DNA from: Gnetum montanum
Taxonomy: Eukaryota > Plantae > Gnetophyta
Length of the DNA: 64,000 nucleotides
Assembly (NCBI GenBank): GCA_015680685.1
Contig: MNCI01001832.1
Location: 67,404-131,403, forward strand
Direction of reading: 5' to 3'
Below the pieces are notes generated by a model that had not been told where the DNA came from, did no database searches, and worked only from the letters and a program-made list of their open reading frames with translations. Position 1 is the stretch's first letter. Every line of letters starts with the position of its first letter. Below, in pieces: positions 1 to 64,000 of this stretch. The translations under genes were made by a program, and so were the position numbers.

Positions 1-692
1 TGTGTTCCTAATCTATGCTACTCCTAAAGGTAGCTGAAAATAATATTAACTAAGCTAAGCTAGGAGGAGAAAGGTGAGAGAATCTAATCTAGCCTAAGTG
101 CAACGAGCAACCGATTCCTTGATCAACCGTACACATCTTGGACCTCGTGCACGACTACCACTAGGATTACCAAGCGTAGATCCTAGGTATGCCACTAGGC
201 TACCAAGTAGTCACACTTAAATGCTCGTAATCAAGTCGTACGTGTTCCACGTTGCGATGAGTAGCCGATTCCTTGACTAACCGTACACATCCTTAGATGC
301 TCGTAATCAAGTCGTACTCATACCACATTCTAGGAGTTTAAGGGTAAGAGAGAAAGCAGTAAATAACAATTAAATAAACAAATAAATAACAAAATGACTA
401 CTACAATGATGAAGTAATCTCGATCTTTATTGCTGGTCATGTGCGTGTCCAAGTACGTCACACTCGAATAAGACACCGTACAATTACATTCACCACACTG
501 CGAGTAGACACGGGAAAAATGATCTATCTCTGGAGTGGTCAAACTACCAGAGCTTTACTACTCCTATTCTATCTATGTTAAACAAGGGAGAGTCGTGTCT
601 TATTTATAGATATGGCGACGGATTGCGAAATCGCGTACGCGATATCGTAGGGAAGATGCGATATCGTGGCCTATGCGAATCGCGTCTCATCA
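1..692 (-). mobile_element. Athila-type LTR (left end outside window), same family as the solo LTR at 28528-29568
   Basis: Ends in cgcgtctcatca (minus TGATGAGACGCG), identical to the end of the solo LTR. Minus-strand TATA (tatttataga, ~601-610), minus AATAAA (~425-430), CGATATCG repeats and the same hairpin modules. CpGs are retained, so it is relatively young. Confidence 0.85.
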
Positions 693-18499: not shown

Positions 18500-20510
18500 A
18501 ACTATGATGACCAGCAACCTGACTACACTGGCCAATGTAGTCACAAGTGGGATGATGTCTACTACCATCAACCAAACTCCTGATTGACTCTAAAATTACC
18601 ACATCATGCACCAAACCCTAACCAAAGCTTCCAACAACTTTGAAATTTCATAAAATTGGTCAAAAAGCACCAAAAATCATTTTTCTTACATGGACTACAC
18701 TAGGGGAAACCTCAACTATGTAGTCCATATGTAGTTGATCAAGGAATGAACACCAAAATTCAAATATAACCTTCAAAATAACATATTTTTACCTCAACAC
18801 TTCTTTGGAACCTCTTATGCTCTTAAAATAACAAACAACTGATCACGAATAAGTCGAATTCCATCCCAAACCTATGACAAACATAGATGGGTATGGAAAG
18901 GATGACAAAGGCCAAAAATAGTAGTTAAAATACCTTAGACACCACACCTTCCCATAGCTCTTGGTAAGCCTAAAATGTTAAATAACCAAGTAAAAGGTAG
19001 ATGAAACCTACTATCATTTTGGTACTATGCTGGGGGTGACCTTAAATACATTAGCTAGTGTAGTTCCATCATAGTTGGATAAGATTAAATGACTAAAATC
19101 AAATAATAACCTCCAAATTTTCATATCTTACATTCACATCCTTCCAGGATATCCAATGATCTTGAAATGCCAAGTAGTGGAACCAAATTCATCCAAAACA
19201 CACAGGAAACCTATGACTACACTGGAGAAGCCTAGGACTATGCTAACTAGCATAGTCCCAGTGTAGTCATCATGTGAAAACATAACCAAAACATACATGA
19301 AACCTATGACTATACTACAGAAGCCTAGGACTATGTTAACTAGCATAGTCCTAGTGTAGTCATCATGTGAAAACATAAAAATAGGTCACCAACATGTCAA
19401 ACCAAATTTGAGAAGCATCATCTCAACTCTAAACCCTATCAAAGACTTTAGAGACCACTAACCCTACAGCTTGAGTTGAAAGATGACCAAAACTCAACAT
19501 GCTTCCTACATCTATGTTGGGACTACATTGGCTAGTGCAGTCCAATGGTGTATGACCATTTTGACATTCAAACGACCATCAAAACTAACCATTTTGAGGT
19601 TGAAACCCTAGTTTCAAACACTAGTAACTTAAATACCCAGAAACCCAGTTAATCGACCATTGAATTTCATAAAAATCTATTATTCATGTTATGAATATGC
19701 TAGAGGAGGCCTAAACTATGCTGGTTAGCATAGTCCTAGTGTATTCATGGTCCTATGAAGCATTAACCAATAGTTTGACACTTCAAATAGCCCAGAATCT
19801 AAATTGGAAATTCAAAACCTTGTTTAGCCCCTCCCAACTACAATTCCACCTTGTTTTAACCATGAAAACACTAGATTCCATTCATCTATGCTAGGGAAAG
19901 CATGGGACTATGTTGGCTAGTGTAGTCCCAACATAGTCCCTACCCCAAGGTGATTTAACCAACAGAATAGCACTTAGAATGGCTAAAAGGCTTGATTTTA
20001 GATGACTAGAACCTTGAAATCCTAGAGCTAGCTGTAATTTGACCTTGCTTAATCATGAAAAATCTAAATTTTGATTCACCTACACTAGAGCAATCCTCAA
20101 CTACGCTAGCTAACATAGTCATGAGATGTATGTGCTAAAACTTCACTCTTAGTAGCCTACTTTGATTTTCAAATGGTCTATTTTGTCTTTCCCATACCCT
20201 ATGTTTCCCTAGCAAGCTAATGAAATACCAACAGCAACTTTGGAATTTCATAAACCCATTTCTCACATGCATCTACATTGGAGCAGGCATGAACTACGCT
20301 AGCTAGTGTAGTCACTAGTTTTGACATCATTTCCAACTTCTAGAGGGTGAAAACAAAGTCAAAATGCACCAATCTTCAATGCCAATTTACTGCACTCATA
20401 ATATAGATCATCGAGGACTCAAAACTAGCCACAATTGAACTAGAAAATCACCTACTGGTGTTGACTACACTAGGGCCTATCCTGACTATGCTAGCCAGCG
20501 TAGTCCCTAG
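18500..20510. repeat. ~192-bp periodic array of palindrome GACTACGCTGGCCAGCGTAGTC (decayed)
   Basis: Palindrome starts at 19044, 19236, 19329 (after a 93-bp duplication), 19521, 19714, 19906, 20099, 20292 and 20484; also at 18521 and a partial copy at 18714. Confidence 0.85.
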
Positions 20511-27752: not shown

Positions 27753-28527
27753 CTACAATCATGAACAATTTTAAGATTCAACTAGCTCAAAAAAAATCTC
27801 TAACAGTTCATAACCCTTCCTCAAATTCTTGGGTTTTGATCAAAATCATACCTTACTATGAAGTTTAGTTCTAATTGGAATTGTAGAGTTAGAAAATTTG
27901 TAACTTGGATAAATTTTTCTACAAGAAAACCCCCTTAATTAAAAATTTTTCTAATGTTTACAATAAAATTTATCTTTTATGACCCATCACAATCATTAAT
28001 TTCTTATTTAAAGTATGTTTGAATGGCTATTTGGAAAGAATCATTAAGTTTATTAGATTCTATTAGGTTAAAATATAATCATTTCTTATTGTTCTTATCC
28101 TTTCTTTGTTCTTCTAGGTGTTAGAAAAATTTGATGCAATTTTCACAAACTATACAGAGTATTCTCTTCCATGACTAAGTTGATCACTCTCTAAGCAAAA
28201 GAAAAAAAGAATGACTCAAATCAAAGTTGTAGTAAGGAAGATATGCATCTCTAAAGCTTGGAGGTCAAAAAAGAAGCATCAATTCCCTATGTGTGAAAGA
28301 GAGAATGAAATTTTTTTTAAAACCTCATGTGCATATGTAGATTTTTTTTGGGGATACATCATAGATATGACAACATGGATGCGATATCGTGGGGGCTCAT
28401 ACATTATATCTACAATATCACCATAAAAATTTTCAAGATTTTGTGTGATTTCTGATGGAAAAATTGGATAAAATGAATGTTCTAGAAGGTATAGAGATGG
28501 TCCAATGGGTTCTTAATCATAGGTGAT

Positions 28528-29568
28528 TGATGAGTGGCGAGGTACCCCTACACTCCACCATACGAATATGAGCGTACACGCGGGATCCGGTCGAACTCCG
28601 CAGACTAAATGCCTTAACGCCACAAGAAACACTTGGGGTTAATCGTTCGTTGTCTTCCCAGGCTTGCTTGTATGTGTCACGGTGTATGGTTAAGCAAGTC
28701 TGAGGTATGTGATTTTTTTGGTATTTTCGGCTTATCTTCTATGCTACCAGGAGAAAGGGTTGAGAAAACTAAACTAACTCTAACTAAGATCTAAGTCTAA
28801 ATTAACTAGCGTCAGCATCCGTTCCCACTTACCGGACACACCCTGAACTATGCAACTGCAGCTTACCAAACGCTAATCGTTACTGGGATCGCCACACGTA
28901 ACGCAAGTGCTCGAAGTGGTCGTACTGAGGCACCTATTTAGCCTACGTGTGATAAGCAGCCGATTCCTTAGCCAGCCGTACACACCCGTGGGTGCTCGTA
29001 ACTAAGTCGTACTTATCACACGATCTAGCCTAGCAATGAGCAGCCGATTCCTCAACTAGCCGTACACATTAGACCCGGGAGTTACCAAGCGCAGAATCCT
29101 GGAATACGCTACTGGGTTACCAAGCAGCCAATGCTCGTAATTGAGTCGTACTCATGCATTGCGTCAAGCAGCCGATTCCTTGACTAGCCGTACACGTCCG
29201 TAGACGCTCGTAATCAAGTCGTACTTGAACGCACTAGGAAAGCAGTAAATGAAAGCAATAAATGAAACCACGTGCTGCAAGGTTTATCCAATCAAGTTCG
29301 TCTTTATTGCCGTACACAACTTGGGTTCAGGTTACAAGCTGCTCGAATAAAGAGCCGTTCACTCTAGGACTCCTACTGCGGGCACATGGGGAAAAATTCT
29401 AACTCTGGAGTGATCAATCTGCCAGAGCTTCGCTACACTAGCCAGGATTGGGAAATGAAGGGAGTGCCGCCTCTTATTTATAGATATGGTGGCGGGACAC
29501 GATATCGCGTACGCGATATCGCAGGGTAAGACGCGATATCGCGGCCCAGTGCAAGTCGCGTCTCATCA
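28528..29568 (-). mobile_element. Young Athila-type solo LTR (1041 bp)
   Basis: TGATGAG...CTCATCA termini with perfect TSD GTGAT (28523-28527, 29569-29573) and no PBS or PPT. CpG-rich, minus TATA at ~29475-29484, minus AATAAA at ~29303-29308. Confidence 0.93.
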
Positions 29569-31499
29569 GTGATGCTTAAAAGGTAAGAATTTATCATCGA
29601 AGTCATGTGAAAGAAAGAGTTTGAGCAAGGTAAGTTGATTAAGTATTGTAGGATGTGGTTGGTTAAAACTGTTGAATGTATGAATAAAGATAAGTTTGTA
29701 GGAAAATAACAATGATCGTATAAGTGTTCTAGAGGCACAAGATGATGTGGAATTGATCATCAAGTATGAAACACAAGAGTTATACAGTGGGATTCTCCCC
29801 AAAGCAAGCTCCTACCCTTAATGTCCTGGTATAACCATACTTACAAATGTCCATAGGCACTTAAGGAGATGAACATAAAATATATGTATCTTCCAAAAAT
29901 ACACATGTTAGTATTATCTTAATAAGAAAATAATACTATATTATACAAAACCATTAAGTTATGATTGCATATAATAGTAAGGTAAAATGCTAATAATAGG
30001 GATTGCAAAAAATGAGACGTAAGGTGTCTTACCATAGGCATAATGAATTCTATGTGTTATGCATGGTTAGAATGATCATTAGCTTTTCCGTCCAAGATCC
30101 AAATCAAGTCCATACCACTTACTAATGACATCATATTGTATCATCCCAAGACTAATAACTATAAGACTACCATGGCTACAAAAAATATTAACACTTGTCA
30201 ATGACATACAACGAAGCAATTTATTAACAACACATTTTATTTTTAAAGGATACTTGACCATTGGACAGAGGAGCACCTTCAGGCCTAAGTAACATGTCTT
30301 TCTAGTCCCATAACCAATGGAAGTCTAAGAAATCTTGAAATTTCTAAGAAGTCACTTACCTTTAGGCATGGGTAACATGTCTTTCTAGTGACATGGTAAG
30401 GTAGCACTTATTTTAGAATAGACTTTAATTTTTTGTTAAAACTCAAGTAAATTAGACAACTTAGTAGCCAGATAAGACTTATAGTAGTAACCTTAGAAAA
30501 TCCATAAATTTCCTTGATGTCACACCCTTTTCATTCCCACTTGGTTCTTCACTTTTTAATCTGGGCATAATGATTATTAGTTTATTTTAATTTTATTGTA
30601 AAAATAATGTCATTATGTCCATGGTAAGAACCTCTTATTATTGAAAATGACTAGATGGATGACATGGTCTCACTACATATACAATTAGTTCTTTAATGAT
30701 TTGATAATATAAAGTAAAATTCTCATTGTTTTGACCACATCTTATTTATTTCTTTATACTCTATTAGAAAATCAAAAAATATGTACATGAAAAATAGTAA
30801 AAATTACTAAAGAATGAGAAATAGATAAGGAAAAATGTATAAAGAATTTGAAAGATATTCAAGAATGAAAGATGATTAAGAAATGTGGAAAGTATAAAAG
30901 AATAGGAATGATATCAAAGAATGTAAAAATTAGTAATAAATGTAAAAAGTATAACAAAAAATTATAAACCAAACAATTATAAAATAAAAATGTTGAAAAG
31001 CACTTATCAATTCCTGATTCAAGATAAGGTATCTCCCCCATGACTAAACTCATGGGTGAGTATTCAAAAAATAGACCCTAGATCCACAGGATCATACACT
31101 CTAGGTTTCTTATTTATCATCCTTAATAATTTAGATTTTCGCTTATTATCCTATGTAACATTGATGATTATCAAATTTTAATCATTAGGAGACACATATC
31201 TTGTTGGACTAGATGATATTCTTATTTTAGATGGTCCAAATATGTTTTAGTATTCATTCTTAATTTTAGGTTTTGAGTTTCCGTGCTCACTACTTGTTCT
31301 TAATGTATGGTCATGTTTTAGGATATCCTTCTCTAAGTTTTTGATTTGGGTCATTTTCTTAGTGTAGGATTTGATAAGTGGACTAGATGTTTCCATGCAT
31401 ATTTTGAGTAGTTTCATGTTCCCATTTCTTAACCATTGGGTTTCTTTTGGTTTAGTGGCCATTTTTTCTTTTTATATAAACACTTATTATTCACATTTG

Positions 31500-40502: not shown

Positions 40503-41450
40503 TCAGTCAAAAGCGTGGCCACTGAAGAGGTGGAAGCGGTGCACGTCGAGCACGATCTGGCGAACGGAGGCCACGACGCCGAGCGCGCCGACGCAGGAGA
40601 AGACGCACATGATGGCCACATTGACGCAGTACACGGCGCTGTTGCGCGGGGGGAGGAGCGCCATGTTGTACAGCAGCATGGGCAGCACGAAGTCCAGAGG
40701 AATGAAGCCGAGGGAGCCCACGAGCGCGTTCACGTCGCCGAAGAAGGGCAGCATGGCGGCCAACACGGCGCACAGCGCCACATACGCGCCCCGCAAGGCC
40801 ACCCGCGCCAGCACATTCCGCCACGCCATGACGCCGAGCCGTGCGTCGGCGGCGCGCTTCTCCATGATGTCGTAGGCCACCTGCGAGTACACCAGCGCTA
40901 TGGCCAGCAGCTGCACCAGAATGCACGCCACCGCAAGTCCCAGCAGCCACTGTGGCGCCAGCGCCGGGCCGGAATCCGGCGCCAGCGATTTCAGAATGTT
41001 GGCGTCCGCGGCGTTGCCGAGCGCCCAGTAGCCCGACGCCGCCACCGAGTAAAACGTCGCGGCCACCACCGCGTAGCACATGCCCAGCGCCTTCAGCATC
41101 TTGCCCTGCGCCGGGGCCGCCAGCGTTGCCTGGATTTCCGGCAGGATCCCGTTGCCCAGAATGGTGCCCAGAATCGAGAGCGCACTGAAGGCGTTCAGCA
41201 TTCGGATGCCCCCCGTTTTCCCCTTGAGCGAGTAGTCCTTGGGCGGCGCCCGCGCCGACTTCCCCGCCATCACGCACGCCGCCACTATGCAGAAGCTGTA
41301 CGTCACGCTCAGCAGCAGCGAGGCCAGGTTTATGTAGCGCAGCGAGTGGAACGACGGCAGCTGCGACAGGATCATCATCACCCCCGCCACCATTGCTATG
41401 AAGTGGTACAGCTTCAGCTCCCCGTTGCTCACCACGTTATCGTACAGTAT
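40503..41450 (-). CDS. GAT2: GAT2-like coding exon 3
   Basis: Acceptor TTGCAG| at 41451; ILYDNVV...FSGHAFD then TGA. Confidence 0.93.
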   Translation of the reverse strand: MLYDNVVSNGELKLYHFIAMVAGVMMILSQLPSFHSLRYINLASLLLSVTYSFCIVAACVMAGKSARAPPKDYSLKGKTGGIRMLNAFSALSILGTILGNGILPEIQATLAAPAQGKMLKALGMCYAVVAATFYSVAASGYWALGNAADANILKSLAPDSGPALAPQWLLGLAVACILVQLLAIALVYSQVAYDIMEKRAADARLGVMAWRNVLARVALRGAYVALCAVLAAMLPFFGDVNALVGSLGFIPLDFVLPMLLYNMALLPPRNSAVYCVNVAIMCVFSCVGALGVVASVRQIVLDVHRFHLFSGHAFD

Positions 41451-43314
41451 CTGCAACGCACATGACCAGAATTATTGTCCGGGCCGTCCGTTGGAGGCAG
41501 AATTGGGATGAAAATACTAGAGATAATCGGGTTTCAGGTGACCTGTAGGCACTCCGCGGCCAGCAGAATACAGCCTATGCCGACGCCCATGTTGATAACC
41601 GTCTGCACCGACACCACGAAGTAAAACATCCGACCTGAACCTGCATTCACGCGGCGGCAGCCCCCAAATCCGTGCGTTAGTCAATTTTTCATTAAAAAGT
41701 CTGCCATTAAAGACAGCGAATTCGAAGAGTCCGTGACAAATATTGGTGGTATACAACATGAATTTTATATGAAAAAACTATAGTATTAAAAATCGGTCTG
41801 TTTGACTCAATCAGATTTGCATAAATCGTCATACAGCGATTTATTGGAATTCTGTCCGAACCAACGCTTTCCGGAAACGGAAATTTACCGGTTATCACGC
41901 AATACTTCATCCTAAAGATTTCATTATGCAAAGAAACACCTGTACGGCTGCACTGGAAGCCCTCAGTTTCCCCCTCAAGGTACCTCCACTAGTTCCTTTG
42001 TCAACAAATCCCCGGAAGTTTGGGTTTTAATTAACCCCCAAGAAAAAATAGTTAATGGAATTTCTTTCATCTTCGCATTCAGGGCAAACTGCCGAGATAG
42101 TTGCGAGATGTGCTGGCAGATAAACTCCCGAAAACGTTGCGAGCCGTGATAGTTGATAGCTCTACAGACTGTTTAAAAAAAGGTCAGGGTCATCACTCTA
42201 CACTCAGACCATGCTTGAGATAAACTGATATTTCCGGTCCACCCTGCCGAACTTGCTGGTCTATTTTCTGCTGAAAATATATGCTTTGATACAGTTCAAT
42301 ATTTCCCGTTCGGAGTGCTCGACGATGACGAACTCGTAGATAAAATAGACGGCCACTATGCCCAAAAGCCCGGAGTGCTCGACCTCCAAGATAAAATAGA
42401 CTGGCAGTATGCCCAAAAGACCCGCTGCAATATGCTGAGGTGTAATTACTTCGTAGGGAGGGTTAAATTCCTGAGCCCCGAACGTGGATTTGCCGTTGTA
42501 TTATTCAAATCAGTTCAGATGAGCTCAGAATTCCAGGGCCATATAGCTTTTGTGGAAGCTTGGATGAATGTAGGAAAAGCTGATCTTTAAGATTAAATCT
42601 AGGTCTTACCAATAAATAATCACTTCATCATGTCTGTCATAATTACACATTTTGAAATTTCATTACGTCCCTAGACCTTCTGAAACAATATAAATACACA
42701 TGCTGTAAATTTTGAAAAAATCCTTAAGAAAACTACCGGTATTCTTACTAAGATTTGCAATAAATCAGCCATCTATCAACCGCTGAGATGGATGAACACA
42801 TACCCATTTTCATACTGGGTTGAAGGGTCGCGTAACAGTCACAGTTTGCAGACGAAAAAACGAGGAGTACCGTGCATTGGTTGAATAAAAAAAATGAAAG
42901 AGATTGCAGGTAGGTGGACAATGGAGAAAGCCTACCAAGAACGTCAGCGGCGAGCTCACGGAAGCGGATATGGCGACGGCCCTGGGATTCGCAATGGTCG
43001 AGAACGCGAGACATGAGAAAGTAGGCGTACAGAGTAACAGCAGCGGCGACTGTGAGCGCTACGAAGCCAGGCGCCCAACCTAAGGCAGCCATGGCGTACG
43101 GCAGCGACACAAGCGTTGGTCCTACGATGGCCGTTGTGAGGTGAAAGCCGGCGTGCCACCATTTTCCCTTTCCCTGCAACACGAAAGCAGCCCCCGCGTC
43201 TCCCTGCGCCTCCTCCTCCTCCACCATTACCAGCCGCTGCCCTGTTTCTGCCTCCGTCATCGCCCCGCCTTTTTCCATGGCAGGCAGTTTCTCAGCGTCG
43301 CCGTTGTGCGCCAT
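40503..43314 (-). CDS. GAT2: Probable GABA transporter 2-like (AAAP/ATF amino-acid transporter, GAT/ProT branch), 474 aa, join complement(42936..43314,41543..41640,40503..41450)
   Basis: Motifs [44 protein letters not shown]|SGRMFYFVV...CLQ|[34 protein letters not shown] and [14 protein letters not shown] closely match plant GAT2 (Arabidopsis At5g41800-type). Introns are GT-AG and the frame is conserved (379+98+948=1425 nt). Confidence 0.93.
41543..41640 (-). CDS. GAT2: GAT2-like coding exon 2
   Basis: Acceptor ATGCAG| at 41641; encodes (G)[32 protein letters not shown]; donor CAG|GTCACC. Missed by the ORF track in this frame. Confidence 0.9.
42936..43314 (-). CDS. GAT2: GAT2-like coding exon 1
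   Basis: ATG at 43314 (MAHNGD...); donor G|GTAGGC at 42935, phase 1. Confidence 0.9.
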
Positions 43315-49087: not shown

Positions 49088-51439
49088 TGATGAATCATCA
49101 TTTGGCTAAGATATCATAGATGCTATATTGCTGATGCTACATCACATCTGCATTGTAGCATCCTTGTCGATGCATCTCAATTGGCTACTACATCACAGAT
49201 ACTACATCACATCTGCTATAACTTAGCTATGTCAATGCATCCTCGTTGACGCATGGGTTGACACATTGACACATATGCATTGATGCAATCTCTATCTTCA
49301 CCTATAAATATGTGAGTACCCACTGTGTATTTGACATCTTTCAGTCATTTTAGTAGCTAAACTCTTGCAGTTTCATTTCATGATTTTAGTAAACAATCAG
49401 TGAGTGACCGCAGTGTGAATTTGAGTGAGTTGTATGACATCTTATTTGAGTGGCATTATACGTGGACATAATCCATGAATAACAATAAGACCAAGATTGA
49501 TTCATATTCATTACAGTAATGTAACTTAGATTAGATTTACTTTCCATGCAATTTACTTTTCATTTACTTAGTTAATATTTACATTTTCACACATATTAAT
49601 CAATTGGCAAAATAAGTGCGACTAGCTTCAACCATGAACATGTATTTGCTTGGTAATCCCAGTAGTATTATTGCTTAGCTTGCCCAGTAGTGTAATGCTT
49701 AGTAATCCCAGTAGTGGATACATGGGTTCAGGACATGTACAACAAACTGGGAATGGACACTCATCATCCATAGGCTATTTTAACATTTATCTTCCTGTTT
49801 TAAATTAGATTAAATAATTAATTTCTCTATTATTGTTAAGATTAGCATAAGGTAAAAATAACATCAACCATCATATGCCTCACGTTGGACTAAATCATAT
49901 GTGACAAAGCTACCAATAGTCCAAGTGGAAGACAATGTCCAGTGATCAACACTTAACAATTTAGATGCCACAACTAGTTCCATCCATGGAATTCAAACAA
50001 ATTACACATGAATGCTCATGATTCATATGGTCAGGCATAGGGGACACCCACCGCTCATCATTGGCACTATTGCCAGGGATGGTGCTAGTTATCTAGATTA
50101 GTTATATTATAAAAAATCATTGTAAAAGTAATAACGATTTATCTTTCAAAAAATATTAATATTTAAAGTCACACACGCTATCAAATAAAATCATGTCTTC
50201 TTTCTATAGAACCAAGAATGCATCACATGATGAAAAGACTCATAGGAGAAATGATAAGATTTGTACTAAAGAGAATTGGAGTGAAAAACCTCAAGCAAGG
50301 GTTTCATATGCTCATTTAGATCCTTACTACACTCAAAGACTATGTTCAACTAACATAAGCAATCTTAGAAGTGATGGAGTAATTCCTAGAACAAGGAGGT
50401 CCTAAAGGCCTAGAACCACCTCCAAACCTAGAAGAGATAAATCAAGGGATTACATAAAAAGATATAGCATCCATGGAAATTCTTCGATTTCACCATCTTT
50501 CTCTTTGTCTTCCATGTCTAGTTCTAATGAAGATGAATGAGGTATAAAGATAGAGCTCCACTAAAGGGTCAAGATGGAGATAAAAATACAATGTAAGGAC
50601 AAGATGAAAGACATCAAAGTGAGCATAGACAAGAATAGTGTAATAAAAAAAATAAAAATAGAGATTATCACTATGACATTTATAATGCTAAGGAACCCTT
50701 GTTAGCTACTAGGGGCATGAATTAGATTAGGGAGGTAGTTCAAATACCTCATAGGCGTCAAAGGGAAAGTTACATCAAATAGCTTTATATGAACAAGATT
50801 CCTAGATTTAAGGGAGGCTATAATTATGATTCATAACATCATTAACAAGCCTTCCATGATGCTTGCACCTTGCAAAATATCAAAAGTAAGTGGAAAAAGC
50901 TTAAGCTCTTTCCTAGGATACTAATAGATAAATTTAAAAGTTGGTATAAATTGTTGAAACCAGATTCAATCCATTGGTGGTCCACAATGCTAGAACGTTT
51001 CAACGAAAAATACCAAACCTATGCAAGAGTGTCCAATCTGAGAAAACAAATCCAAGGATGAAAGCTAGGACAACATGAATTCTTGGATATGACCTTGGAT
51101 AGATAATATTTCCTACTACATAGATATCCATGCCATGATTTTTCTCAAAAAGAGCAGCTTTTCCCCATCATAGATGAAATTTGTAATCAAATGAGCAAGA
51201 CCCTTGGGATTTATGCCCAAGGTCAGTTATTCAAATTGAAAGCCCATTAGATACAATGGTTGATTAAGTAGGTGGCAAAAGAAGAAGGAGAACTATGTAA
51301 ATGAGAGAATGTAGAGGAATATAATGAGGGACCAACTCTTCAAAAGAATGAGGTCCATATCTATAATACGAAAAAAGAGGCATCTCTTGATGAGGTGATT
51401 TCATAAAAAACCTTATCAATACAAAAGTCTATTGCTAAG
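49088..51439 (+). mobile_element. Athila-type element 5' part: LTR 49088-50060, tRNA-Asp PBS 50062-50079, gag remnant 50193-51439
   Basis: tgatgaat...gctcatca; tggcactattgccaggga is a CpG-decayed TGGCGCCGTTGCCGGGGA; gag LKLFPRILIDKFKSWYKLLKPDSI. Interrupted at 51440. Confidence 0.85.
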
Positions 51440-52488
51440 TGATGAGTCATCATTGGTTGGCTGCGTCGACGAGGCCCCGTCAATGCATTTTGTCCTATGT
51501 CAACGAGGCCTTGTTGATGTAGTGTTTATCCATTACCTATAAATACATGCCTACCAGCCACATTTATGGAGAGTCCAAATTTTAGTAGTAGTAAAGCTCT
51601 TACATTGTTTGCATTTGAAGTTAGAATCTTTTCCCTGAGTGCCCATAGTAGGAGTCATTGAGTGTATGGATCTTTGTGCGAGCATTGTTGTACTTAAGCA
51701 TGATAGTGTGTGTGGCAATAAAGATGAGCTTTCTGATAAACCTTGTAGCACTTTGGATAGATTACCTATTTTATTTATGCATTTAATGTTTTCAATTATT
51801 TATTAAATGCTTTCAATTAGTTATCAAATATTTTTTAGTTATTACATTAATGAGACAATTAAGAGAAATAGATTACACACATAAGTACAACTGCTTCAAA
51901 TGTAACACATATTCACTTGGTAATCCCAGTAGTGTTATCACTTAGTACACCCAATAGCATAGCGTTTGGTCGCCCAGCAGTGGATATGTGGGTTCATGAC
52001 ATGTACGAAAAGTGGGAACAAATACTTATGTTGGGATTAGCTAAATGATTAGTTAATTAGTAATTTAGATTAGTTAATTAAACTCCTTTTATTTGCATTT
52101 CAAGCACCAAAATATAAAATACAAAATGATAAAAATTGGATGCCTTAGTTACACTTAACCATACCAACATACATCATAAGTGTAATTGGGAGGACAACAA
52201 TTGACCTTATGGCTAAATTCACTTCCTAAAGGGCTAGTGCATTGAAAACAATAAAGTCTGTAGAATTTGACTAGATTGTGCGTGAACACTTGTGATTCAT
52301 ATAGTTGGGTGTAGGGGTACCTTGCTACTCATCATTGGCACCATTGTTGGGGACTTTGTTTGTGGAACATGTGCTATTTAGGTCTAAGTGGATACCACTA
52401 ATATAATTGTATGAACCTAAAGGTTAATAACATTCCCACTATACATAAATTATAAAAGCACACTGATAATTTCATTTTGTTTTACAAA

Positions 52489-55400
52489 ATGTCTTCTTCT
52501 TCTTGTAAGCCTAAAGATACTAAACCATCGATCCCACAAGAATGCAAGGTGGTATACACTCATCCAGATGAGTTTGTGCGAAATTTCACCTTCATCCTAC
52601 ATCAGGATGAATAGATGCAATGGTGTGATATGGTGGGCAACATCATTTTGCCCCTTGATAGATCTATGCCTGGAATACCGTTTAAAATCCTTAAGAAGTT
52701 GGGCATAGTAGATCTTCACGAAGAGTACATTGTGGATGGATATGACACTCGGAACTATTATCCCATTGAAACACAATGTAAATGAGATAAACGTCAGGAG
52801 AGACTCCATGAAGCCACAAAGGGGAAACATTACACTAATCCCTTGTTCCTACTAGATCAAGTGGACAATGAGGATCCTCCCTTAGAAGGTTCTCAACATG
52901 AAGATTCTCCACCCCTCGCTACTAATGGTGAGGGTGTGAACTTGACCTTGTGATCAACTATTCATAAACTAGGTTCAAGAAAGAGTGATAGCCAAGGTAG
53001 GAACTTGGGTGAACATCGAAATAACAAGGAATCTAATGATGGTGATCATAAAAAGTAGAAGAGTGGTGGTGGACATGATGATGGCGGTGGCAGTCCACCT
53101 TCCTCTTCATCTGATTTTGAACATTCCTCTTCATGTGATGGTTCTCATGGAAGTCATCATCAAAACAACTATGATGAAGGTGATCGACAATATAATAATG
53201 ACTGTGAAGGCTGCCAAAATCAAAGGGATGGCCAAAACCATCATCGACTTCATCAACATAGCAATGATGATGAACCTTTACTGGCGAATTAAAATATTCT
53301 TAACATTGCAGAGGCAATGAAAATCCCAACCAAGCATATGAAGGATAGTCAGATTAAGTGCCTAGATATGAACAATATTCCAAGATTTGAAGGGGGATAC
53401 AATTTTGATCCATAAACACATCTACAAGCTTTTCAAGATGCCTGTGTCTTACAGAACATTGAGAATGAGTAGTAGAAACTCAAGATTTTTCCAAGGATAG
53501 TCATTAAGGAAGCTAAAAGTTGGTACTAGTCCTTAGAACTAGAATCTATCCAGAGATGGAGTACCATGTTAGAATTGTTTAATGATAAATATCAAACGTA
53601 CTCTAGAGTGTCTAATCTACGAAGGCAAATCCAAGGCTAGAAACAAGGAACACACGAACCCTTGGATGCTGCCATGGACCGATACTATTCACTTTTACAT
53701 AGGTGCCTTGGCCATGATTACTCTCAATGGGAATAACTTCGCTACATCATAGATGGGCTCAGAGCATAAATAAGAAGAACCCTTAGGGTGTATGCCTAAG
53801 GGAGGTTGTCTAAAATGAGAGCTCATTAGATCTAAAGGCTAATTGAGCAAGTAGCAAAAGAAGAAGGTGAGTTATGAAAAAGGGAGAGTGTTGAAGAGTA
53901 TAATAGGGACTCATCCATCAGAAAATAAGAGGTTTGATTTTGTGATGAGGAGGAGTAACCATTTGATGAAGTGGTAAATAGAAAGACCTTGCCCATCCAA
54001 AAATCTATTTTTGACATTTTAGCCAAGGTTCACAAGTTATGGAACTCTTTGGATAAAATTTTTGAACCACTTTGAAGATTGTTGAAGAATCCAAAGAGCA
54101 AAATAATGATTGTAATTATAGATGGTGAAAAGAAGCTGAATGTGCCTACCAAAGAGGTAAGGGCAAAGTTGCTGCAGTAGAGGAAGTTGTGGAATCTAAC
54201 TCTAATGATGAAATTGAATGTGACATTTGTCAATATGAACATCCAAAGGGATGCTGCTTTGTGGTGTTACACTTAGAAGAGTTTAGAGTGTATGCATTAA
54301 ATCCTCGCCTAGCATATAGAAAAGCTCCAAGATGATTGCCTTACCCTCAAGGTAGCCCAAGGCAATTCCACCACCAACAACAAGTTTACTACCCAAGTGG
54401 AACTCCTCCACAACCTTATGAATAGTACCAACAGTGGTGCCAACCACAATTGTGGGGAATGCCACTGCCAAGATAGCAGTATCCTTATAGGCAACCATAT
54501 CCATACAAGTACTATGTTGAGCAACTCGTCTCCCCTAGAAGTTCATCAAGTCATGCATCATTCCAACATCATTATTACCCTCCAGAGTACCACCAAACAC
54601 ATTCACCATCTACTTGAGGGGAAAACCCATATCCATATCCTTATCATCCTCCACATCCCTTTGCACCTACACCTCCACCTTCAACTTAGTTACCTCCTGC
54701 TCCATCCTTGTAGGGTGAAATTCCTCCACAATTGCAACAATGAAATGCTACAAGGGCTGTACACTCACAACCAATTTTTCAACCAAGTGGTTAGGATAAT
54801 TGATTAAGAAAACAACCTTTCTTCTAGTCCAGTAATCCTTTCCAACACTCACAACCTACTCCAACTGATCACCCTACATCTCCAGTACCCTCATCCTCTA
54901 CATCAAATACCTTTCAGCACCCTTCAAACCAAGTGCTACCTAGGATTTGCACTATAATGCTAAATCATGTTGTTTCTAATTGGATCAAGGCTAGCAATCT
55001 TCTTATAAAAAGATCTGATCCTGTAAGTCCACTCATCTTTCTACAGATTTTTGGAAAAGAGCCATGCAAGGCTCTTCTTGACTTTGATTCTAGAGTTAAC
55101 CTCATCTCCCATGATATGTACAAAGCTTGGAACCTACTACCTCTTAAGAAGAGCAAAATCTGTTTAGAATTAGCAGATCAGTCAATTATTGTTCCCTTGG
55201 GATTAGTAGAGGACATTGTGACCACAGTCTATGGGTGGTCCTATCCTACTAATTTTCTGGTAATCAAGGTGGACAATTACAAAAGTGACTTCCCCATCAT
55301 TATGGGAAGGGCTTGGTTAAGTGCGGTCAATGCACGAATGGGTATAAGGGACCTATCTTTCAAAATATCTAAGGAAAATGACTTAGGAAAAATTAAGAAG

Positions 55401-58400
55401 AAGCGTATTCCATGCATCACATACAACAATAATGGGTGTAATTATGTGCAAAAGATTTCGTCAATCAAAAGCACATACATTAAGGCATGCAATTAGTGTG
55501 CAAAAGAAATTAACATTTAGAGGTGTCTGTATGTAGTAGCCACAAAGTAGGAGGGCACCTAGTGGCTGATAGCTGATTCAGATAGCAGCACAATATGCAT
55601 GGAGCCAACTGAGAGCTTAACTTATGCATATGTAGAAGGGATGGACAAAATTGAATAAGTCCATTCCCAACTCTCTAATGAAAATGATGATAACTATTGG
55701 GGAGAGTTGAAGATCCCAAATAACTTTAAGCAGGAGCCCTCAGAACTAAAAAATTTACTAGTCATATTGGAGTATGCATTTTTAAAGAATGGTAAACTAG
55801 TCATCATTAATGTCAAACTTACTCTTGAACAAAAAGAACGTTATTGAAAGTGGTGAATAAATGGTCAACAACCTTTGCTTGGTCATATCTAGAGCTAACA
55901 GGAATTAATCCAAGGGTATGCTAACATCGCATCTACATTGACCTGACCATGAAACTTAGAAGATAGTTGCAGAGGTGATTAAGTCCCAAATTGAAGTAAA
56001 TCATTAAGGAGGAGATAGAGCAGCTCCTTAAGGTGGGATTTATCTATCCAATCATGGATAGTGAGTGGGTTAGCCCACTCATAATTGTACCAAAAAAGGA
56101 TGGTAAATGGTAGGTTTGCATTGACTTTAGGTTGTTAAATATGGCAACATTTAAGGATCACTTTCCTTTGCCATTTTTGGATCAAGTATTAGGCATCATA
56201 TCCAGGAATTGTTATTATAGTTTCTTTGATGGTTATAATAGCCATAACCAAATCCAAATTATGCTAGAAGACCAAGCCAAGACAACATTCATGAGTCCCT
56301 AGGGGACTTTTACATACTGTAAGATGCCATTTGGCCCATGAAATGCCCCTGCAACATTTCAATGCTTGGTCCTTAGTATCTTTCAACAATAGACCGGTAG
56401 TGGTGTTGAAGTCTTTATGGATGACTTCTCCACCTATGGAGCTACCTTTGAGCAAGCCTTGGACCAACTTGAGCAAGCACTGAAGAGATGTGTTGAGACA
56501 AACCTATGGCTCAACTAGTAAAAGAGCCATCTCATGGTCCAAGAAGGCATTGTGCTAGGGCACCGAATTTTGTAGAAAGGGATTGAGGTAGACCTAGAAA
56601 AGATAAGGGTCATCCAAGGAATAACATGGAAACCAGAGATCATTAAAAATATTTGATCATTCCTTGGACACACTGGTTACTACCGGTGCTTTATTGAAAA
56701 TTTCTCGAAGATTGCAAAGCCATTGGTAGAACTTACAAAGAAAGATGCACCTTTCATTTAGACCAAGGAATGTGAAAATGCATGTCAACAATTAAAAGAG
56801 AAACCCATAGAAACATGAATCCTATAAGCACCAAATTGGTCCAAACCATTTCATATCATGACAGATGCATCTAACTATGCTTTGGGATTAGTACTCATGC
56901 AAATGCATGAGAAGAAACATCCATATTATATCTACTACATGACTCGAAGCATTGTGGGAGCATAGTTAAATTACACCACCATAGAGAAGGAATTAATGAC
57001 AATGGTGTACGTGTTAGAAAAGTTTAGACATTATGTCCTAGGTTACAAAGTATTTGTACAGACCACAATGTAATTCACTTCCTTATGAATAAGTTGACGG
57101 TGAGCCCTTGTGTTATATGGTGGCTTATGATCTTGCAAGAATTTGATCTTACTATGGTAGATCGAAAAGGAACTGAGAATGTGGTCACTGACCATCTTTC
57201 TCACTTAAGATGGGAGAACAAAGATGAGGAGAGCTTGCTCTTTGATCATTTTCTAGAAAAACTCCTCTTTATTGGAGTAATAAATGAACAAATGCTTGAA
57301 AAACCAATATGGTATAATGGCATTCTCACATATCTTCTCACTCAAGAGATGCCACAAGACTTGAATTTTAGGAAAAAGCAACAATTTCTTCATCAGGTCA
57401 AATACTTTATGGAAATTAATGGATACCTTTACAAGGTATGTGCCAATGGCTTGATTTGTTGGTGTGTCCCTGACGAAGATCAACTATGTGTTCTCCAAGG
57501 TGCTCATGAAGGACCTTGTAGAAGTCACCATGTAGGGAGACACATGGGCATAAAAATATTGATGGTAGGATACTATTGGCCCATAATCTTCAGGGATGCC
57601 TACCAGTTTGTCAAGTCATGTGAACATTGTCAATGTGATAGGGGATGATCGCTTGTATGGAAGATCCTCAATAGTGGATTCAACCACTAGAACCTTTCAA
57701 CATATGGGGCATTGACTTCATGGATCCCATCACATCCATGTCTAAAAGGAAAGAATATATTAGAGTAGCAGTTGATTATTACACAAAATGGGCTAAAGTG
57801 GTAGCCGTTATAGATTGCACATCATCCACTACTACCATATTTATACAACAACATATTGTAAATAGGTTTGGGGTGTCGTGTTCACTAATTTCTGATAATG
57901 GGACTCATTTCACAGGTGCGACATTTAGAAAATTAATGCAATGCTTTGGGGTAGAACATAAATTAACAACACCTTACCACCCCTAAGCCAATGATCAAGT
58001 AGAGGTAACCAATTAGAAGATTACAAAAATATTAATGTGAACCATTAGCAAATATAGGAAGGATTGGAGCACAAAACTTAATGATGCTCTCTAGGCTTAC
58101 TAATCAACTTGGAAACTTCTATTGGATATTCTCCCTATGAGTTAGTTTATGGAAAACTTCTAATGCTCCCAATTCAATCTGAGCTTCGTACACTGTCAAC
58201 AACCTATGAACTAAACCTTGACCTAAGTTTAGCACAAAAGGAAAGATTGATCAATCTGAATGTGCTAGAAAAAAATCACTTAGTCTCCCTATCTTTTAAT
58301 GAGGTAAACAAGGCATTTAGTAAGCAATGCCATAGCCTTAGAATTAGGAAAGTAAGGTTTCAACTGGGAGATAAGGTCCTCTACTAGAACCCCATACATG

Positions 58401-58640
58401 TACCTCAAAAGGAAAAATTTCAAACATTGTGGAAGGGACCTTATATAATTGATCAAACCTTTTCCTCTGAGGCCATGATAATTTACAAACCTGATAGCCC
58501 AAATAAAAAGTAGTTGGTCAATATCCAACAAGTTAAACCTTTCTTAGAACCAAGATTGGCTAGTGTAGCTATCACCTCAACTAATGGACACCCATGTTCT
58601 ATTTTTCAGATCTCCTCCTTCCAACTCAGTTGTGGGGGAG
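52489..58640 (+). pseudogene. gag-pol polyprotein remnant
   Basis: gag core ~53330-53900; PR ALLDFDSRVNLI/IIMGRAWL; RT SEWVSP, KDHFPLPF, EVFMDDFS (~56408); RNaseH TDASNYALG, NYTTIEKE; INT HHCC, WGIDFM, SDNGTHF, TTPYHP. Many stops and frameshifts. Confidence 0.92.
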
Positions 58641-60740
58641 ATGGCCATTTGTGCTAACCATTACCATGGCTTCTTAGCTTTTCTACCTTTTGGTTTTTCA
58701 CATTTTTTATTTTACAAATTTTTGATTTTTGAATGTTTATAATTTTATATCATTTTTAGTACCTTTAAAATTTCTTTCTTATTTTACACTTTCTTATATA
58801 TTTTACTGTATTCTTTTTCTTTTGTTTCTTCTGATTAAGTGTGATATTTTCTCATTTTTACTGATAAATCTGCTTTATTGTCATAGGACATAATGCTGTT
58901 GTTACTATTTGCTAATGATGGATTGTGATTGTCGATGTCTGGTTTCTATTTTTGAATTATGATGTCTAATGACTTGACATGGTTTATTTTTCATGGAACA
59001 GGTAGTGAATCCACATCATTTGCCCATCCAATGAGCTTTATGGTTTTCTTTGTTCTAGAAATTTGATATCCCTTTTTCATTAAAGAAACTTTTAATCAAT
59101 TAGTGACCTTGGTAGTTCTGGAATTAGGAAGGATTCAAAGGTTTGTAAAGGGTGTGACTTCAAGGGGACTCAATACTCTTTATACTCTTCTTTTTGCTTA
59201 AGTGCTTGAGTGTTTTTTCATAGACTTCTTATCATTCCATACCACCCAATGATAGAAAGAAAAATAATATCATTGCATGGTGTGGTTCCCATCATTCAAA
59301 AGAAAAAAAAAACAATAATGGAAATTCAAAGCACATCCCTTTGACATGAATAAGTCCTCGCATCGTGTGGTTTCCATTTCAAAAGAAAAAAAACAATGGG
59401 AATTTAAAGCACATCTCTTGGACAAATAAAAGGGCTGCAAGCATTGCTTATGGGACTTGAAAGACATACACCTATGCCTGAAGATCCCCTCTAACTAAGG
59501 CCCTCTCTCTCACACTTCCTACTTCTCTCTCCTCTTTGTGGAATGGTGGTTGTCTTGCAGGGACACTCTTGTGTCTCAAGTGGATGGATTAGTCTTAGAG
59601 TGGTGATGCGAAGTCACTAAAAGTAGATGGCTTTGGTATGGACTAAGGTGGAACTTCTTGGGTCATTTTAATCACAATTCCATAAGGGAATTCTTATGAC
59701 CTCAATTTGGAACTCCATTCCACCTTCTCTATCATCCATCCATGTTGCCATAACTCACCTCACTACTAAGTTCTATGTTATGCTTTGTCTTAGTCTGACG
59801 TATTAGGATTCTTGAGTGGATTCTTTTGGGTTGGTTCTTAACTTGTCATGATCATTAAAATTGACTATGGGGCCCACAGACTCTTTAGTTGAGTTTAAGC
59901 AAGGGCAAAAAGGGCATGAGCTTGCTATGGGGAGGACCCACTTGCATAGCTTTTGGCTTGATTAGTTAAGGTTCCTTACCTTTGACATCGCTACAATCTT
60001 ATATTTCATATTTTCCATTGTGTAAACCACTCAGTACTCCTTAATCTTTCATTACATTCATCCATTAAATTGATTTTTCTCCATTTTTTCAAATTTATGA
60101 ACTTCAACACCCTCTTTTCATGATTTCATACTATTCTTGGTCTTCTAAGCTTTCATTTGATCCCAATTTCATCAACAAAATTCTTGTATTTTGAAAGTTT
60201 GACCAAAGTCAACAATGGTCAACAGCTACGTTGACAAGGCCTCGTCGACAAGGCCTTGTCAACACAGTGCAAAAATACTATATATACCACCAGAAACTTT
60301 GGAATTTTTTACAATTTGCTCATAACACACTGAGAATTGTTGTGATTTTTCAAAGTCCAAAACCTTCCAGAGTCCATAACTTTCAAACCGTTTGTCCAAA
60401 TCACTCCATTTTTCAATCCTGCACTTATTGGAGGTAAGATCTTTATTGTGGGGCCACAAAATTTAAGGTTTCTGATGCAATTTTTGAAATTTTTTTCTAA
60501 TTCTCCCAAGGGTTAATAACCTTAATCATATGTAAACATCAATTTTTTCCAAGTTAACCCTTCCAACAATCTCTAGGATGATTTATCAATGATAAGGCAT
60601 AAATAGAAATAACAATTGAGTTAATTAAATCAGCCATAATCACAACTTAGCCAAGTGTAACTACCCTCAAGAGTTAAGGTATCCTAATTTTTTTAAGGTT
60701 ACAAAATGATTGCTAATCCATGGTTTTATTGTGATTATAG

Positions 60741-63577
60741 ATGGCACCCAAACAAAAATGTCCATAGGAAGGAGAACCCTCACAACCACGGGAGAAGCGA
60801 CCTAGAGCTAGAAGGGGCTAGTAGGAACAAGATCAAGAACAACAAGAGGAAACCCATGCAATGAGACCTATTCGTGAGGAGCTTGATGTGGAATCTATTC
60901 AATAGATTCCAAAAGAAGAAGTGCCTATAGAACAATCCCAATGAGGAGAAGTTCCTAGACCTATGCTAAGGCCTAAGGTCACTCTGACTCAAGCTTGCTT
61001 AGACATCATGAAGTCCTGAGAGATCCAAAGATCAATTCTTCAAGAAATAAACTGCTGGGCATTTTTGGAGAAAGCTCCAAAGGATGTTAGGACATAATTG
61101 CAAGCCTTTCCCATGTGGTTAATCATCATGACTAGTGGGGAGTGGTACATGGAATAGACCTATCTCTTCTGGAATAGTAGAAGGCCAGGGTCTATTATAA
61201 AAATCAAGGACATTCAAGTGTCCTACTCAGTAGAGGCCATTGCATAGGCATTGGGGTTGCCAGTCATTGGAAGATATCAACAAAAGGCGATCCTAAGGCA
61301 AAAAGTGAGTGGACCCAATGATGTTACAGGGTGAATAGTAAGAAGTATAATGCACTCACACCAACGAAGTGAATTTATTTCAAGATTGCATCCTATCACC
61401 TCAATCCAATGATGAGGCCAAGCAAAGTTACTACTTTTTCAACTTGAGCATGCGTCATTCTAAGCGAAGAATTTCCCGTTAACCTTTCATAGTTGATTTA
61501 TTTAGAGATCGAGAAGTGCTTCAAGGAGAATGAATGTGGAAGGAAGACCCTACGCTTTCTGTGCCTTATTAGGAAACTTTGCAAGAGGATAGGTATTTTT
61601 CACTAGTCAAATGACACTCTTAGGCATGTTGCCTTGGCATCATGGGTAGAAATCATGAAAGATAAAATGCCAACAACTATTCAAGAAGAGGAGCCACCGC
61701 CATCACCACCCACTCAAGAGACAACATCGGAGGCCTGCGTAGTCGTTGAGCATGCACGACAAATTTGAGAGTAGCTCTTGAGCAAACAAGAGTAGCAAGC
61801 AGGAATGACTGGGGTGGATCCATTTGTGTATTGACTAGCAATGAGTCACCTTAATGAGGTGGCTCAAATAGTTAGCTAGATGGAGAGGGGTGGTTCGATT
61901 TTCTTTGCCTAAAGAATTCAATTGCCTTTGAGGTTGAATCCCAATGCTCGGGAGGTGACGCTGTCATTAGCAAAAAATCATCTATTCCTAGAAATCTATA
62001 GGAATGTTGCCACTTTCTCGGTGAGGTTGGAGGAAGGTGAAGAGGAAATTGTCTTGGTGATGTAGCACCAAGGGAAAAAGATAATGACAGAAGTGGTAGT
62101 TGACTATGTAGCTAAAGCACTGAATGCACCGACGACATCTATACCAGATGTATCTACACTCCAAGATTTGCAAACGTCTGCAGGCATGGTTAGTGGAAAA
62201 TTGAATGCAACCTAGCATGAACAATTACTGGAACAATTGGTAGGAACCGGACAGCCAACTCTGAATATCTTTGATCTTCTGGAGAACATCATTGCAACCT
62301 AGTGAAAGCTACTGAATGTAAGGGGTAGATGCATCATTTTGGAGGGGCAACTAGAAACATCCTAAGAGCAAAATTAATGCTTGGCCATGGAGCTTGCTAA
62401 ACTTCATGCCCAACTTGTTGAATAAGTAATCCTAAGCTTGGCAATGATAAGAGATGAAGCTATCAAACCGCTTCAAGAATAATTTCAAAAGGCTGAGGAG
62501 GAAGTAGTAATGGCCATCTTCAAACAGTCCATGGTAGAAGCTAAAACACACTTAATTAAAATGGACTTGAATTAGATGCACCAAGGAAATGAAGCATTGA
62601 CCATGGAAAATCATCGCTTGTGAAATGTTGATGCTCAAAGATATCAAATGTAAGAATTCATTCATCAACAACAGGAGTAGCTTACTAGAGTCAACATTGA
62701 ACTAAGGAAATTGACTACAAAGAACTACAATTTGTTAATGGAGGAGGTATGCATCTTGAAATAAAAGTCTGCCATCAAAATCATTGCCTAGAAGAATGAA
62801 GCTCTTAAATTTGAGAGAGTGAAAAATCACTATAGGAACTAGGTTGGCTTGTAAAAGGAAATTAATGAAAAAGAAATCCAGATGGCAAAGGCTAAAGTAA
62901 ATGAAGCCTTCTAGCAACTTTAGTAAGGAAGAGAGATGTGGTAGCCCATCTTTGATGGGATTGATGCCTACAATAAAGTAGAGATCTAGTTGAATGAGGT
63001 GCAGATCAAAGAAATGATAGAGTATATGGAGTTGGTCAATCTCTATTATGCAAACTTAGCAATGCTAACAGTTGGATGGCTATGGTTAAAATTAGAGAAA
63101 TAAGTGGCTAGCTTGTATTTGCTATACGAGGCTGAGTTCAAACACCACAAGGACTCTAAGAAAAAGCTTGAGATTACTAATGCTAAACTTGAAGTCCTTA
63201 AAGGATGATTCCTAGATTAATGATCCATTGTTGAGGACCTAGCCAAATGGATGAATGACTATCAGGAGCTAAAGAACATAGTGTGAGGGTTCAACATTGA
63301 ACACAAATAGTTTGCTACCTAATTTATCAATGTCAAGGAGTTGTTTTGAGCAATCCCATATCCTTGGGATGTTCCCATTCCAACCTACATTGGGGAAGCT
63401 GCGTGGACAGTGTATGATCCTATGAGTAAGGAGAAAAAAATGAAAGCATTACTAGATGTTTTTCACCTCCCACCTGAAGTTGCAGCAACAGCAAGACAAC
63501 CATAGCCACCTTAACCACTGCCAAATGCATGAAGTTATTGAAGGTCGCTCGGAGCCTCAGGAACCACCATTACCTAG
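60741..63577 (+). pseudogene. Athila accessory (ORF2/env-like) gene, disrupted
   Basis: ttatag|ATG GCA CCC AAA (MAPKQK...REKRPRARRG), with a long coiled-coil-like C-terminal half. Homologous to 24990-27752. Confidence 0.7.
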
Positions 63578-64000
63578 GATCATTTGATCTTCTCCAACAA
63601 GCTTCACATCATCAATGAATGTGTTGTCTAATTTTTGAAGAGTCGTGTCATGTGTTCAAGTTTGTGTCCTGAACACCACTATTTTTTGTAATGTGTTGAT
63701 CTATACACCCGGGCACTCCATTTTTTGCCAAGTTAGTCAAGTTTATTATGTTGAAGCAAAAAAAATTCAATCAATAATTCCATACCTTCCCAATTTTGTA
63801 AAAGAACTCAAGGACTAGTTTTCATTTAGTTGTGGGGGTATGATGAGTAATTGTTGGTTGGCAACATCAATGAGGCCTCGTTGATTTAGTGTCTGTTAAT
63901 TGCCTATAAATACGTGACTACCAATCGCATTTATGGAGAGTCCAAATTTTAGTAGAAGCAAAGCTCTTGTATTTTTTCCATTTGAAAGTTAGATTTTTTT

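Follow-up and report, generated by a model that had tools for sequence, protein, structure and literature searches.

An apparently undescribed tandem array of predicted RNA hairpin modules in an Athila-type LTR of Gnetum montanum

It has been reported that the Athila clade is defined by RT-RH-INT phylogeny (PMC6317226, in the part available), and a 13-nt PBS motif has been given for ATHILA (10.64898/2026.03.20.713144, in the part available). What is understood of how LTR retrotransposons choose their RNA for packaging comes largely from yeast Ty1, the 5' end of which has structures for packaging, dimerisation and the binding of Gag (PMC5454406 and PMC6844567, in the parts available). In the literature we found no account of RNA packaging selection in plant Ty3/gypsy elements, which fill large plant genomes. 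Among structured RNA elements, the CTE of MPMV has repeated identical internal loops on long stems, its two loops being inverted. The locus described here lies in a window of 64 kb, the whole stretch of DNA that was analysed, in which a solo LTR, called LTR A, carries four tandem hairpin modules (Table 1). Judged from its sequence, the array is real, and as a multimerised RNA motif of an Athila-type LTR it seems to be undescribed; a putative function is proposed below. No description of a structured tandem RNA array in an Athila LTR was found in the literature searched, which was mostly that outside subscription journals and supplements.

Table 1. Features of LTR A and of the related LTRs in the window
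Feature	Position	Strand	Remark
Solo LTR A, 1041 bp, TG...CA	28528..29568	-	terminal inverted repeat TGATGAG/CTCATCA (7 bp)
Target-site duplication ATCAC (5 bp), 5' copy	29569..29573	-	
Target-site duplication ATCAC, 3' copy	28523..28527	-	
U3 CG-rich palindromic repeats of LTR A	29495..29545	.	strand-symmetric fold
TATA-like word of LTR A	29477..29482	-	
AATAAA word of LTR A	29303..29308	-	followed by U-rich tract; putative R/U5 border just downstream
Predicted outer helix, 29238-29234 with 29029-29033	29029..29238	-	closes A1+A2 as three-way junction; pair probability 0.62-0.85
Module A1, short, UACG tetraloop	29160..29233	-	helix probabilities 0.63-0.99
Module A2, long	29033..29158	-	apical sub-hairpin RCU-U-GG-UAA-CC-Y-AGU near 29128-29108
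Module A3, short, CACG tetraloop	28946..29022	-	helix probabilities 0.71-0.98
Module A4, long, 6-bp central helix, variant loops	28809..28931	-	20-22 template pairs all complementary; poor by energy
Related LTR B, cut by window start	1..692	-	67% identical to A over 616 columns
Module B1, UAAG loop	about 250-328	-	in LTR B
Module B2	about 97-250	-	in LTR B
Decayed LTR D, start approximate	49130..50060	+	PBS-like site 10/13; one long module about 49608-49772
5' LTR C of decayed full-length relative	51440..52334	+	one long A4-type module, about 51876-52034
Internal region of element C	52335..63840	+	PBS-like site 9/13 to ATHILA motif

LTR A and the related LTRs of the window

The first-pass annotation had placed the array in the U5 region of an Athila-type LTR whose sense is the minus strand. 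At 28528 the loose ends of 79 contigs of sequencing run X9 are equal to the 13-nt ATHILA PBS motif (as given in the available part of 10.64898/2026.03.20.713144). Sister-copy contigs place this PBS, which is of the tRNA-Asp/Asn type, directly after the LTR, and at 29568 sister-copy contigs of the same run enter a polypurine tract (PPT). These loose ends identify the minus strand as the transcript sense of LTR A independently of any folding, as had been claimed. Of the features by which Athila elements are recognised, LTR A has the TG...CA ends and the target-site duplication, and its sister copies have the PPT before the LTR. The Ty3/gypsy domain order was seen in the related broken element C and not in family A itself, and on rescanning a single RNase H region was seen in 3/27 protein relatives, an additional RNase H being a marker of Tat. 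Judged by means other than an RT-RH-INT tree, the family is likely of the Athila type within Ty3/gypsy, and the PBS, the PPT and the target-site duplication uphold that assignment. The location in U5 is putative, the R/U5 border having been drawn from the TATA (29482) and AATAAA (29308) words and not from mapped RNA ends.

The family is abundant, the LTR or a part of it being contained in 20 of the 24 runs listed. On 491 bases of LTR A four DNA runs gave 24,500, 29,673, 23,748 and 308 contigs, and three of these four runs may be the source of the window. The whole of LTR A is covered by contigs of runs X13, X18 and X9, and one contig of X9 joins 28524 to 29572 as an empty site, the flank itself being a repeat. 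A further hairpin is present in the 3' part of LTR A (28651-28710, z -3.4), and it had only a weak Rfam score.

Three LTRs of the window besides A carry modules, which the first-pass annotation had not noted, the number per LTR being 1, 2 or 4, and there are contig joints of low depth at which an entire module is skipped or repeated; both observations agree with the claim that the modules were multimerised. The single-module relatives were amplified as well and therefore four modules are not required. A scan with arm profiles found no further full module within the 64-kb window. The U3 regions of LTRs A and B are identical at 72/85 positions, and CG-rich palindromes at the start of U3 occur also in LTR B (624-670) and LTR C (51455-51520). 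In element C (51440-64000) gag-pol is broken; pieces resembling protease, RT and integrase follow each other as in Ty3/gypsy elements, and a word like a Cys-His knuckle is present at 54219. Some 5 kb separate integrase from the PPT, which precedes the second LTR, starting at 63841.

Elsewhere in the window, another repeat at 19193-20506 has near-perfect nested palindromes in dispersed and tandem (93-nt) copies, which are likely DNA-level features since they are strand-symmetric. There are also strong isolated hairpins at 11776-11850 and 60201-60300 (-41 and -37 kcal/mol in 75 nt), and GC-rich exons of a GABA-transporter-like gene (PF01490) on the minus strand at 40506-41471 and 42751-43326, the best named matches of which are 63-67% (Ginkgo).

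Architecture, pairing and strand of the modules

Read from the outside in, a module begins with its outer stem, which is followed by a G-Y bulge, a CG/CG stem, an A/GAA(U) loop and a central helix of 8 bp; in the inner half the G-Y bulge and the CG/CG stem recur, and an A/GUA loop leads to the apical stem. All the extra bases that form the bulges are on the 3' strand. Each hairpin has the repeated unit twice, namely a G-Y bulge and an A/GWA(U) loop that are separated by a CG/CG stem of 2 bp, and the spacing of the two units on the 5' strand is 11 nt in the 8-bp modules and 9 nt in A4. In LTR A the modules are in the order short, long, short, long at 280-705 nt before the PBS end. About 70 nt separate AATAAA from the start of the array, which has U-rich tracts on both sides. 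The short modules end in c(UACG)g and c(CACG)g, as had been noted, and in UAAG in LTR B, and we take these caps to be YNMG-type tetraloops. Eight apical sub-hairpins with the pattern RCU-U-GG-UAA(U)-CC-Y-AGU, a feature absent from the first-pass annotation, were parsed in 4 of the 5 long modules and none in A4. The module consensus of the first-pass annotation describes A1-A3, but A4 departs from it in having loops GAA/GA/GUC/GU, that is, GA as the first bulge and GUC for GUA, and a central helix of 6 bp. The predicted outer helix around a module pair is weak in LTR B and none is predicted for A3+A4.

With the coordinates, helices and bulges that had been claimed, the 105 pairs set by hand in A1-A4 are all complementary on the minus strand (92 Watson-Crick, 13 G-U and 0 A-C), and the central helices pair as CUUGAUUA/UAGUCAAG, CUCAAUUA/UAGUUGAG, CUUAGUUA/UGGCUAAG and CCACUU/AAGUGG. 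When the five young 8-bp modules (A1, A2, A3, B1 and B2) were aligned, A4, C1 and D1 being excluded because the aligner misplaces the shorter helix, 118/120 cells were paired (98.3%) and 8/24 pairs were changed on both sides. The observed pairing and covariation were reached by 0/500 shuffles, and slid registers pair at 21-38%; this is not a probability because the five to eight modules aligned in all share descent within a single genome and the structure was drawn from the same sequences. Among the 40 of 73 family variant rows listed, 19 are at paired sites, of which 13 keep the pair, 2 match a change in the partner and 4 break it, and these rows carry no linkage and may include contigs from sister modules. 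The partner change is at 29205/29196, where G-C goes to A-U at 58-65% and 48-61%, respectively, and B1 carries both changes. Three of the breaks are G-to-A changes at CG/CHG (6-12%), as expected from decay after insertion, and the fourth is in the outermost helix (31-40%). The cores of A1 and B1 are identical at 54/62 positions compared to 118/177 for the stretch from TATA to AATAAA. A two-armed descriptor with a pairing demand picked out 6 modules across the window, which lie in two LTRs and without exception on the minus strand, and 0/6 chance 5' arms in retrieved loci passed the pairing demand.

It had also been claimed that non-Watson-Crick positions are G-U on the minus strand and would be A-C on the plus strand. 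The 13 G-U pairs with no A-C agree with this, but they trace to about four homologous sites, and a count of 4 against 1 distinct sites gives p 0.375. In young copies there are 17 G-U to 1 A-C and in the old copies C and D 4 G-U to 9 A-C, the sites not being independent, and the CpG o/e is 0.37 in LTR C compared to 1.18 in the array.

Folding energies give a less even picture of the four modules. The z values of single-module folds are -1.99 for A1, -3.90 for A3, 0.10 for A2 and 0.73 for A4; the prediction is firm for A1 and A3 and varies with the settings for A2 (helix probabilities 0.11-0.87), and A4 is not favoured by energy in its LTR A copy (0-0.23). Forcing all four modules costs 8 kcal/mol. 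The array as a whole folds to -153 kcal/mol on the sense strand compared to -111 kcal/mol on the antisense strand, whereas the U3 palindromes of LTR A fold alike on both strands (-33.3 and -34.2), which marks them as DNA-type and makes them an internal control for the array. Duplexes between the arms of one module are at -17.6 to -18.9 and those across modules at -7.7 to -15.1, the own 3' arm being the best partner of each 5' arm by at least 2.5 kcal/mol. Folds of the entire LTR did not stand out (sense z 0.39), and a scan of folds in fixed 80-nt windows missed the modules.

We consider it very probable that the modules are a selected RNA structure, given that pairs keep complementarity, that changes occur on both sides, that the loops are near-invariant and that family variants mostly preserve pairs. 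It is improbable, by comparison, that the array has no RNA function and is an imperfect inverted repeat which was duplicated by template switching and acquired its paired changes through hairpin-templated repair, or a set of CG-rich DNA binding sites. Such an origin would fit the gain and loss of whole modules at contig joints, the other hairpin arrays in repeats of the same genome (19193-20506) and the strand tests by distinct sites alone, which are not significant (p 0.375 and 0.125). However, templated repair would erase bulges and G-U pairs and both persist, the true DNA palindromes of the window are strand-symmetric, and old copies decay to A-C while young copies do not.

Contigs of one run recorded as RNA cover 28901-29290, with the strand undefined and DNA carry-over possible, and they therefore speak for presence in an RNA library only. 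In this run, X19, which is small and from a differently labelled organism, there was no contig outside about 28900-29290, and library type or divergence could account for that limit, which we do not use as evidence. The presence of RNA-run contigs over the array would be in keeping with a role in stability or silencing evasion, in which a compact fold resists nucleases and the spacing of the bulges denies Dicer-like enzymes a clean duplex; any 21-nt stretch of stem has at least 7 asymmetric bases. Bulges of any sequence would do for this, yet those of the array are near-invariant, no xrRNA family matched in Rfam and no pseudoknot partner is evident, so that we find such a role quite unlikely.

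Possible roles of the array

By analogy with described leaders, we propose that the array is a set of multimerised protein-binding sites on the genomic-RNA leader, most likely for Gag and packaging, and we give this a probability of about 0.45. The four bulged hairpins would serve as repeated protein-docking sites, and the protein may be the Gag that the element itself encodes, whose binding would single out full-length RNA to be packaged; Gag is a guess made from retroviral and Ty1 leaders. Near-invariant loops on variable stems suggest a ligand that reads the loops. The 11 nt between two units is about one helical turn and would put both sites on one face, and since the central helices differ between modules each 5' arm would prefer its own 3' arm, so that the modules may be separate folding units. 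The Cys-His knuckle-like word encoded by element C, presumably an RNA binder, is a candidate for the binding partner. Provided that the poly(A) site comes after the AATAAA at 29308, the array belongs to U5 and is confined to the leader, and each genomic RNA would carry the modules a single time, on the 5' side of the PBS; if instead the array is in R, it is at both RNA ends and the argument for packaging is weaker. The Ty1 5'-end packaging structure, taken with the position of the array before the PBS, and the second hairpin array described below, at the same PBS distance, were counted for this reading, as were the RNA-run contigs over the array. The energies that disfavour A4 and partly A2 were counted against it, together with the non-significant strand tests by distinct sites, the four pair-breaking variant rows and the amplification of single-module relatives. 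Since the module is self-contained at 60-75 nt, has compensatory variants built in and exists in a very large number of natural copies, the question is open to direct tests.

An unlikely alternative is that the loops are recognised by an export factor of the host or by an accessory protein of the element, as in a CTE or RexRE, or that the fold controls the upstream poly(A) signal in the 5' LTR. Identical internal loops repeated on long stems resemble the CTE layout, but the two CTE loops are inverted and not tandem. The RexRE is an LTR-encoded stem-loop, whereas the CTE sits at the 3' end of its RNA (PMC12789967, in the part available). Athila makes a spliced subgenomic RNA and its unspliced RNA would need export (PMC7197481, in the part available), and the start of the array about 70 nt past AATAAA would suit poly(A) control; Rfam, however, gave no match to an export element.

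The first-pass annotation had further offered translation and catalysis. A shunt or IRES-like element that carries ribosomes past a long leader might be suspected from the long structured leader, the seven AUGs in the LTR and the U-rich tracts on either side of the array. The shunt layout requires a short ORF ending before the stem (PMC5902531, in the part available), but the nearest short ORF comes to an end about 140 nt before it, and LTRs B and C do not preserve the AUG of this ORF. A caulimovirus-type shunt was rejected on this ground, and a translation element is very improbable.

The hammerhead core is CUGANGA, a word that is absent from the sense strand. A new small self-cleaving ribozyme built of internal loops would have precedents in minimal two-internal-loop ribozymes (PMC11620745, in the part available) and in plant LTR elements that can carry ribozymes (PMC11722881, in the part available). 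Against this, the 5-/6-nt loops have no conserved CA cleavage site of the twister-sister type (PMC11620745) and the PBS is not of the tRNA-Met type of retrozymes (PMC11722881), and both identities were rejected. Rfam gave no ribozyme match to E 10, and multiple cuts in the leader would separate the cap and R from the PBS. Catalysis is thus scarcely to be expected.

In bacterial genome records, 31 loci (L127-L157) encode plant-type Ty3/gypsy pol, probably through assembly contamination. Arm profiles found no full module in these 31 Athila-like loci, of which only L128 has a PBS and an LTR, so that the result is weak on range. L128, an Athila-like contig from another plant within a bacterial assembly, with its PBS at 2080, has four tandem C(GAGA)G hairpins at 1448-1730, 368-620 nt before the PBS, with 3-bp stems UUC/GAA, UUC/GAA, CUC/GAG and GUC/GAC. 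Four hairpins compare with 0.17 expected and 0/1000 shuffles, for a pattern chosen post hoc in a single comparator. The pattern is absent from the other strand, 1/4 hairpins folds better on the opposite strand, and there was no Rfam match. This is a different motif from that of LTR A at the same place relative to the PBS, and it suggests a lineage-wide feature overlooked by LTR annotation. As a tentative and rather doubtful extension, Athila LTRs as a lineage may carry multimerised RNA aptamer arrays in U5, each family with its own protein-binding motif (the double-bulge unit here, a bulged-G GAGA hairpin in L128), with stems diverging to stop mispairing and the whole co-evolving with the Gag or accessory protein of the family as a packaging code.

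Comparison with known systems

When 28400-29700 was searched against Rfam 15 there were 5 matches to E 10, none over the array and all far below gathering, in agreement with the first-pass annotation, which had not recognised the array as a described family. In collections that contain little plant DNA, viral sequences gave 3 chance matches, unpaired, in one scan and 0 in another, prokaryote sequences gave 0 module matches, and a metagenome match (3 contigs of one bacterial locus) was dismissed as chance, being the reverse strand of a coding frame with the central helix unpaired. No Athila relatives were found in viral contigs.

Several structural identities were also rejected. A kink-turn has a 3-nt bulge followed by tandem G-A/A-G pairs, whereas the GAA bulge here is followed by UC or CG. 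In a sarcin-ricin-like bulged-G motif AGUA is opposite GAA; both words are present, but the covarying flanks put AGUA opposite UGCU/UACU. A plant miRNA duplex of 21 nt has at most about three asymmetric bases, and the one-strand bulges of 2, 3, 2 and 2 nt do not fit such a precursor. In group II intron domain V the register differs, and there was no Rfam hit.

With the ATHILA lineage (Ty3/gypsy, OTA) the family of LTR A shares an identical PBS, a 5-bp target-site duplication, the PPT and an LTR of about 1 kb; the protease-RT-integrase order is that of the related element C, and one RNase H region was seen in those of the nearest proteins that were rescanned. Like retroviral psi and Ty1 TIPIRT, the array would be a structured cis-element near the 5' end and the PBS, but each of those is one fold, built with pseudoknots, palindromes or kissing loops, whereas here one bulged motif is repeated up to eight times and the number of modules varies. 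With the MPMV CTE and the HTLV-1 RexRE, the latter in an LTR, it shares long stems and conserved loops that a protein reads, binding at the array being putative, and it differs in having no sequence match, tandem and not inverted loops, and a position upstream of the PBS. Plant retrozymes and twister-sister-like ribozymes resemble it as conserved RNA structure in a plant LTR and in internal-loop architecture, respectively; unlike in them, the catalytic core residues are absent and the PBS is Asp/Asn, not Met. The caulimovirus leader, with its shunt and capsid-binding site, is likewise a long structured plant leader upstream of the PBS, but the array has no adjacent short ORF and consists of four modules in place of one large stem-loop.
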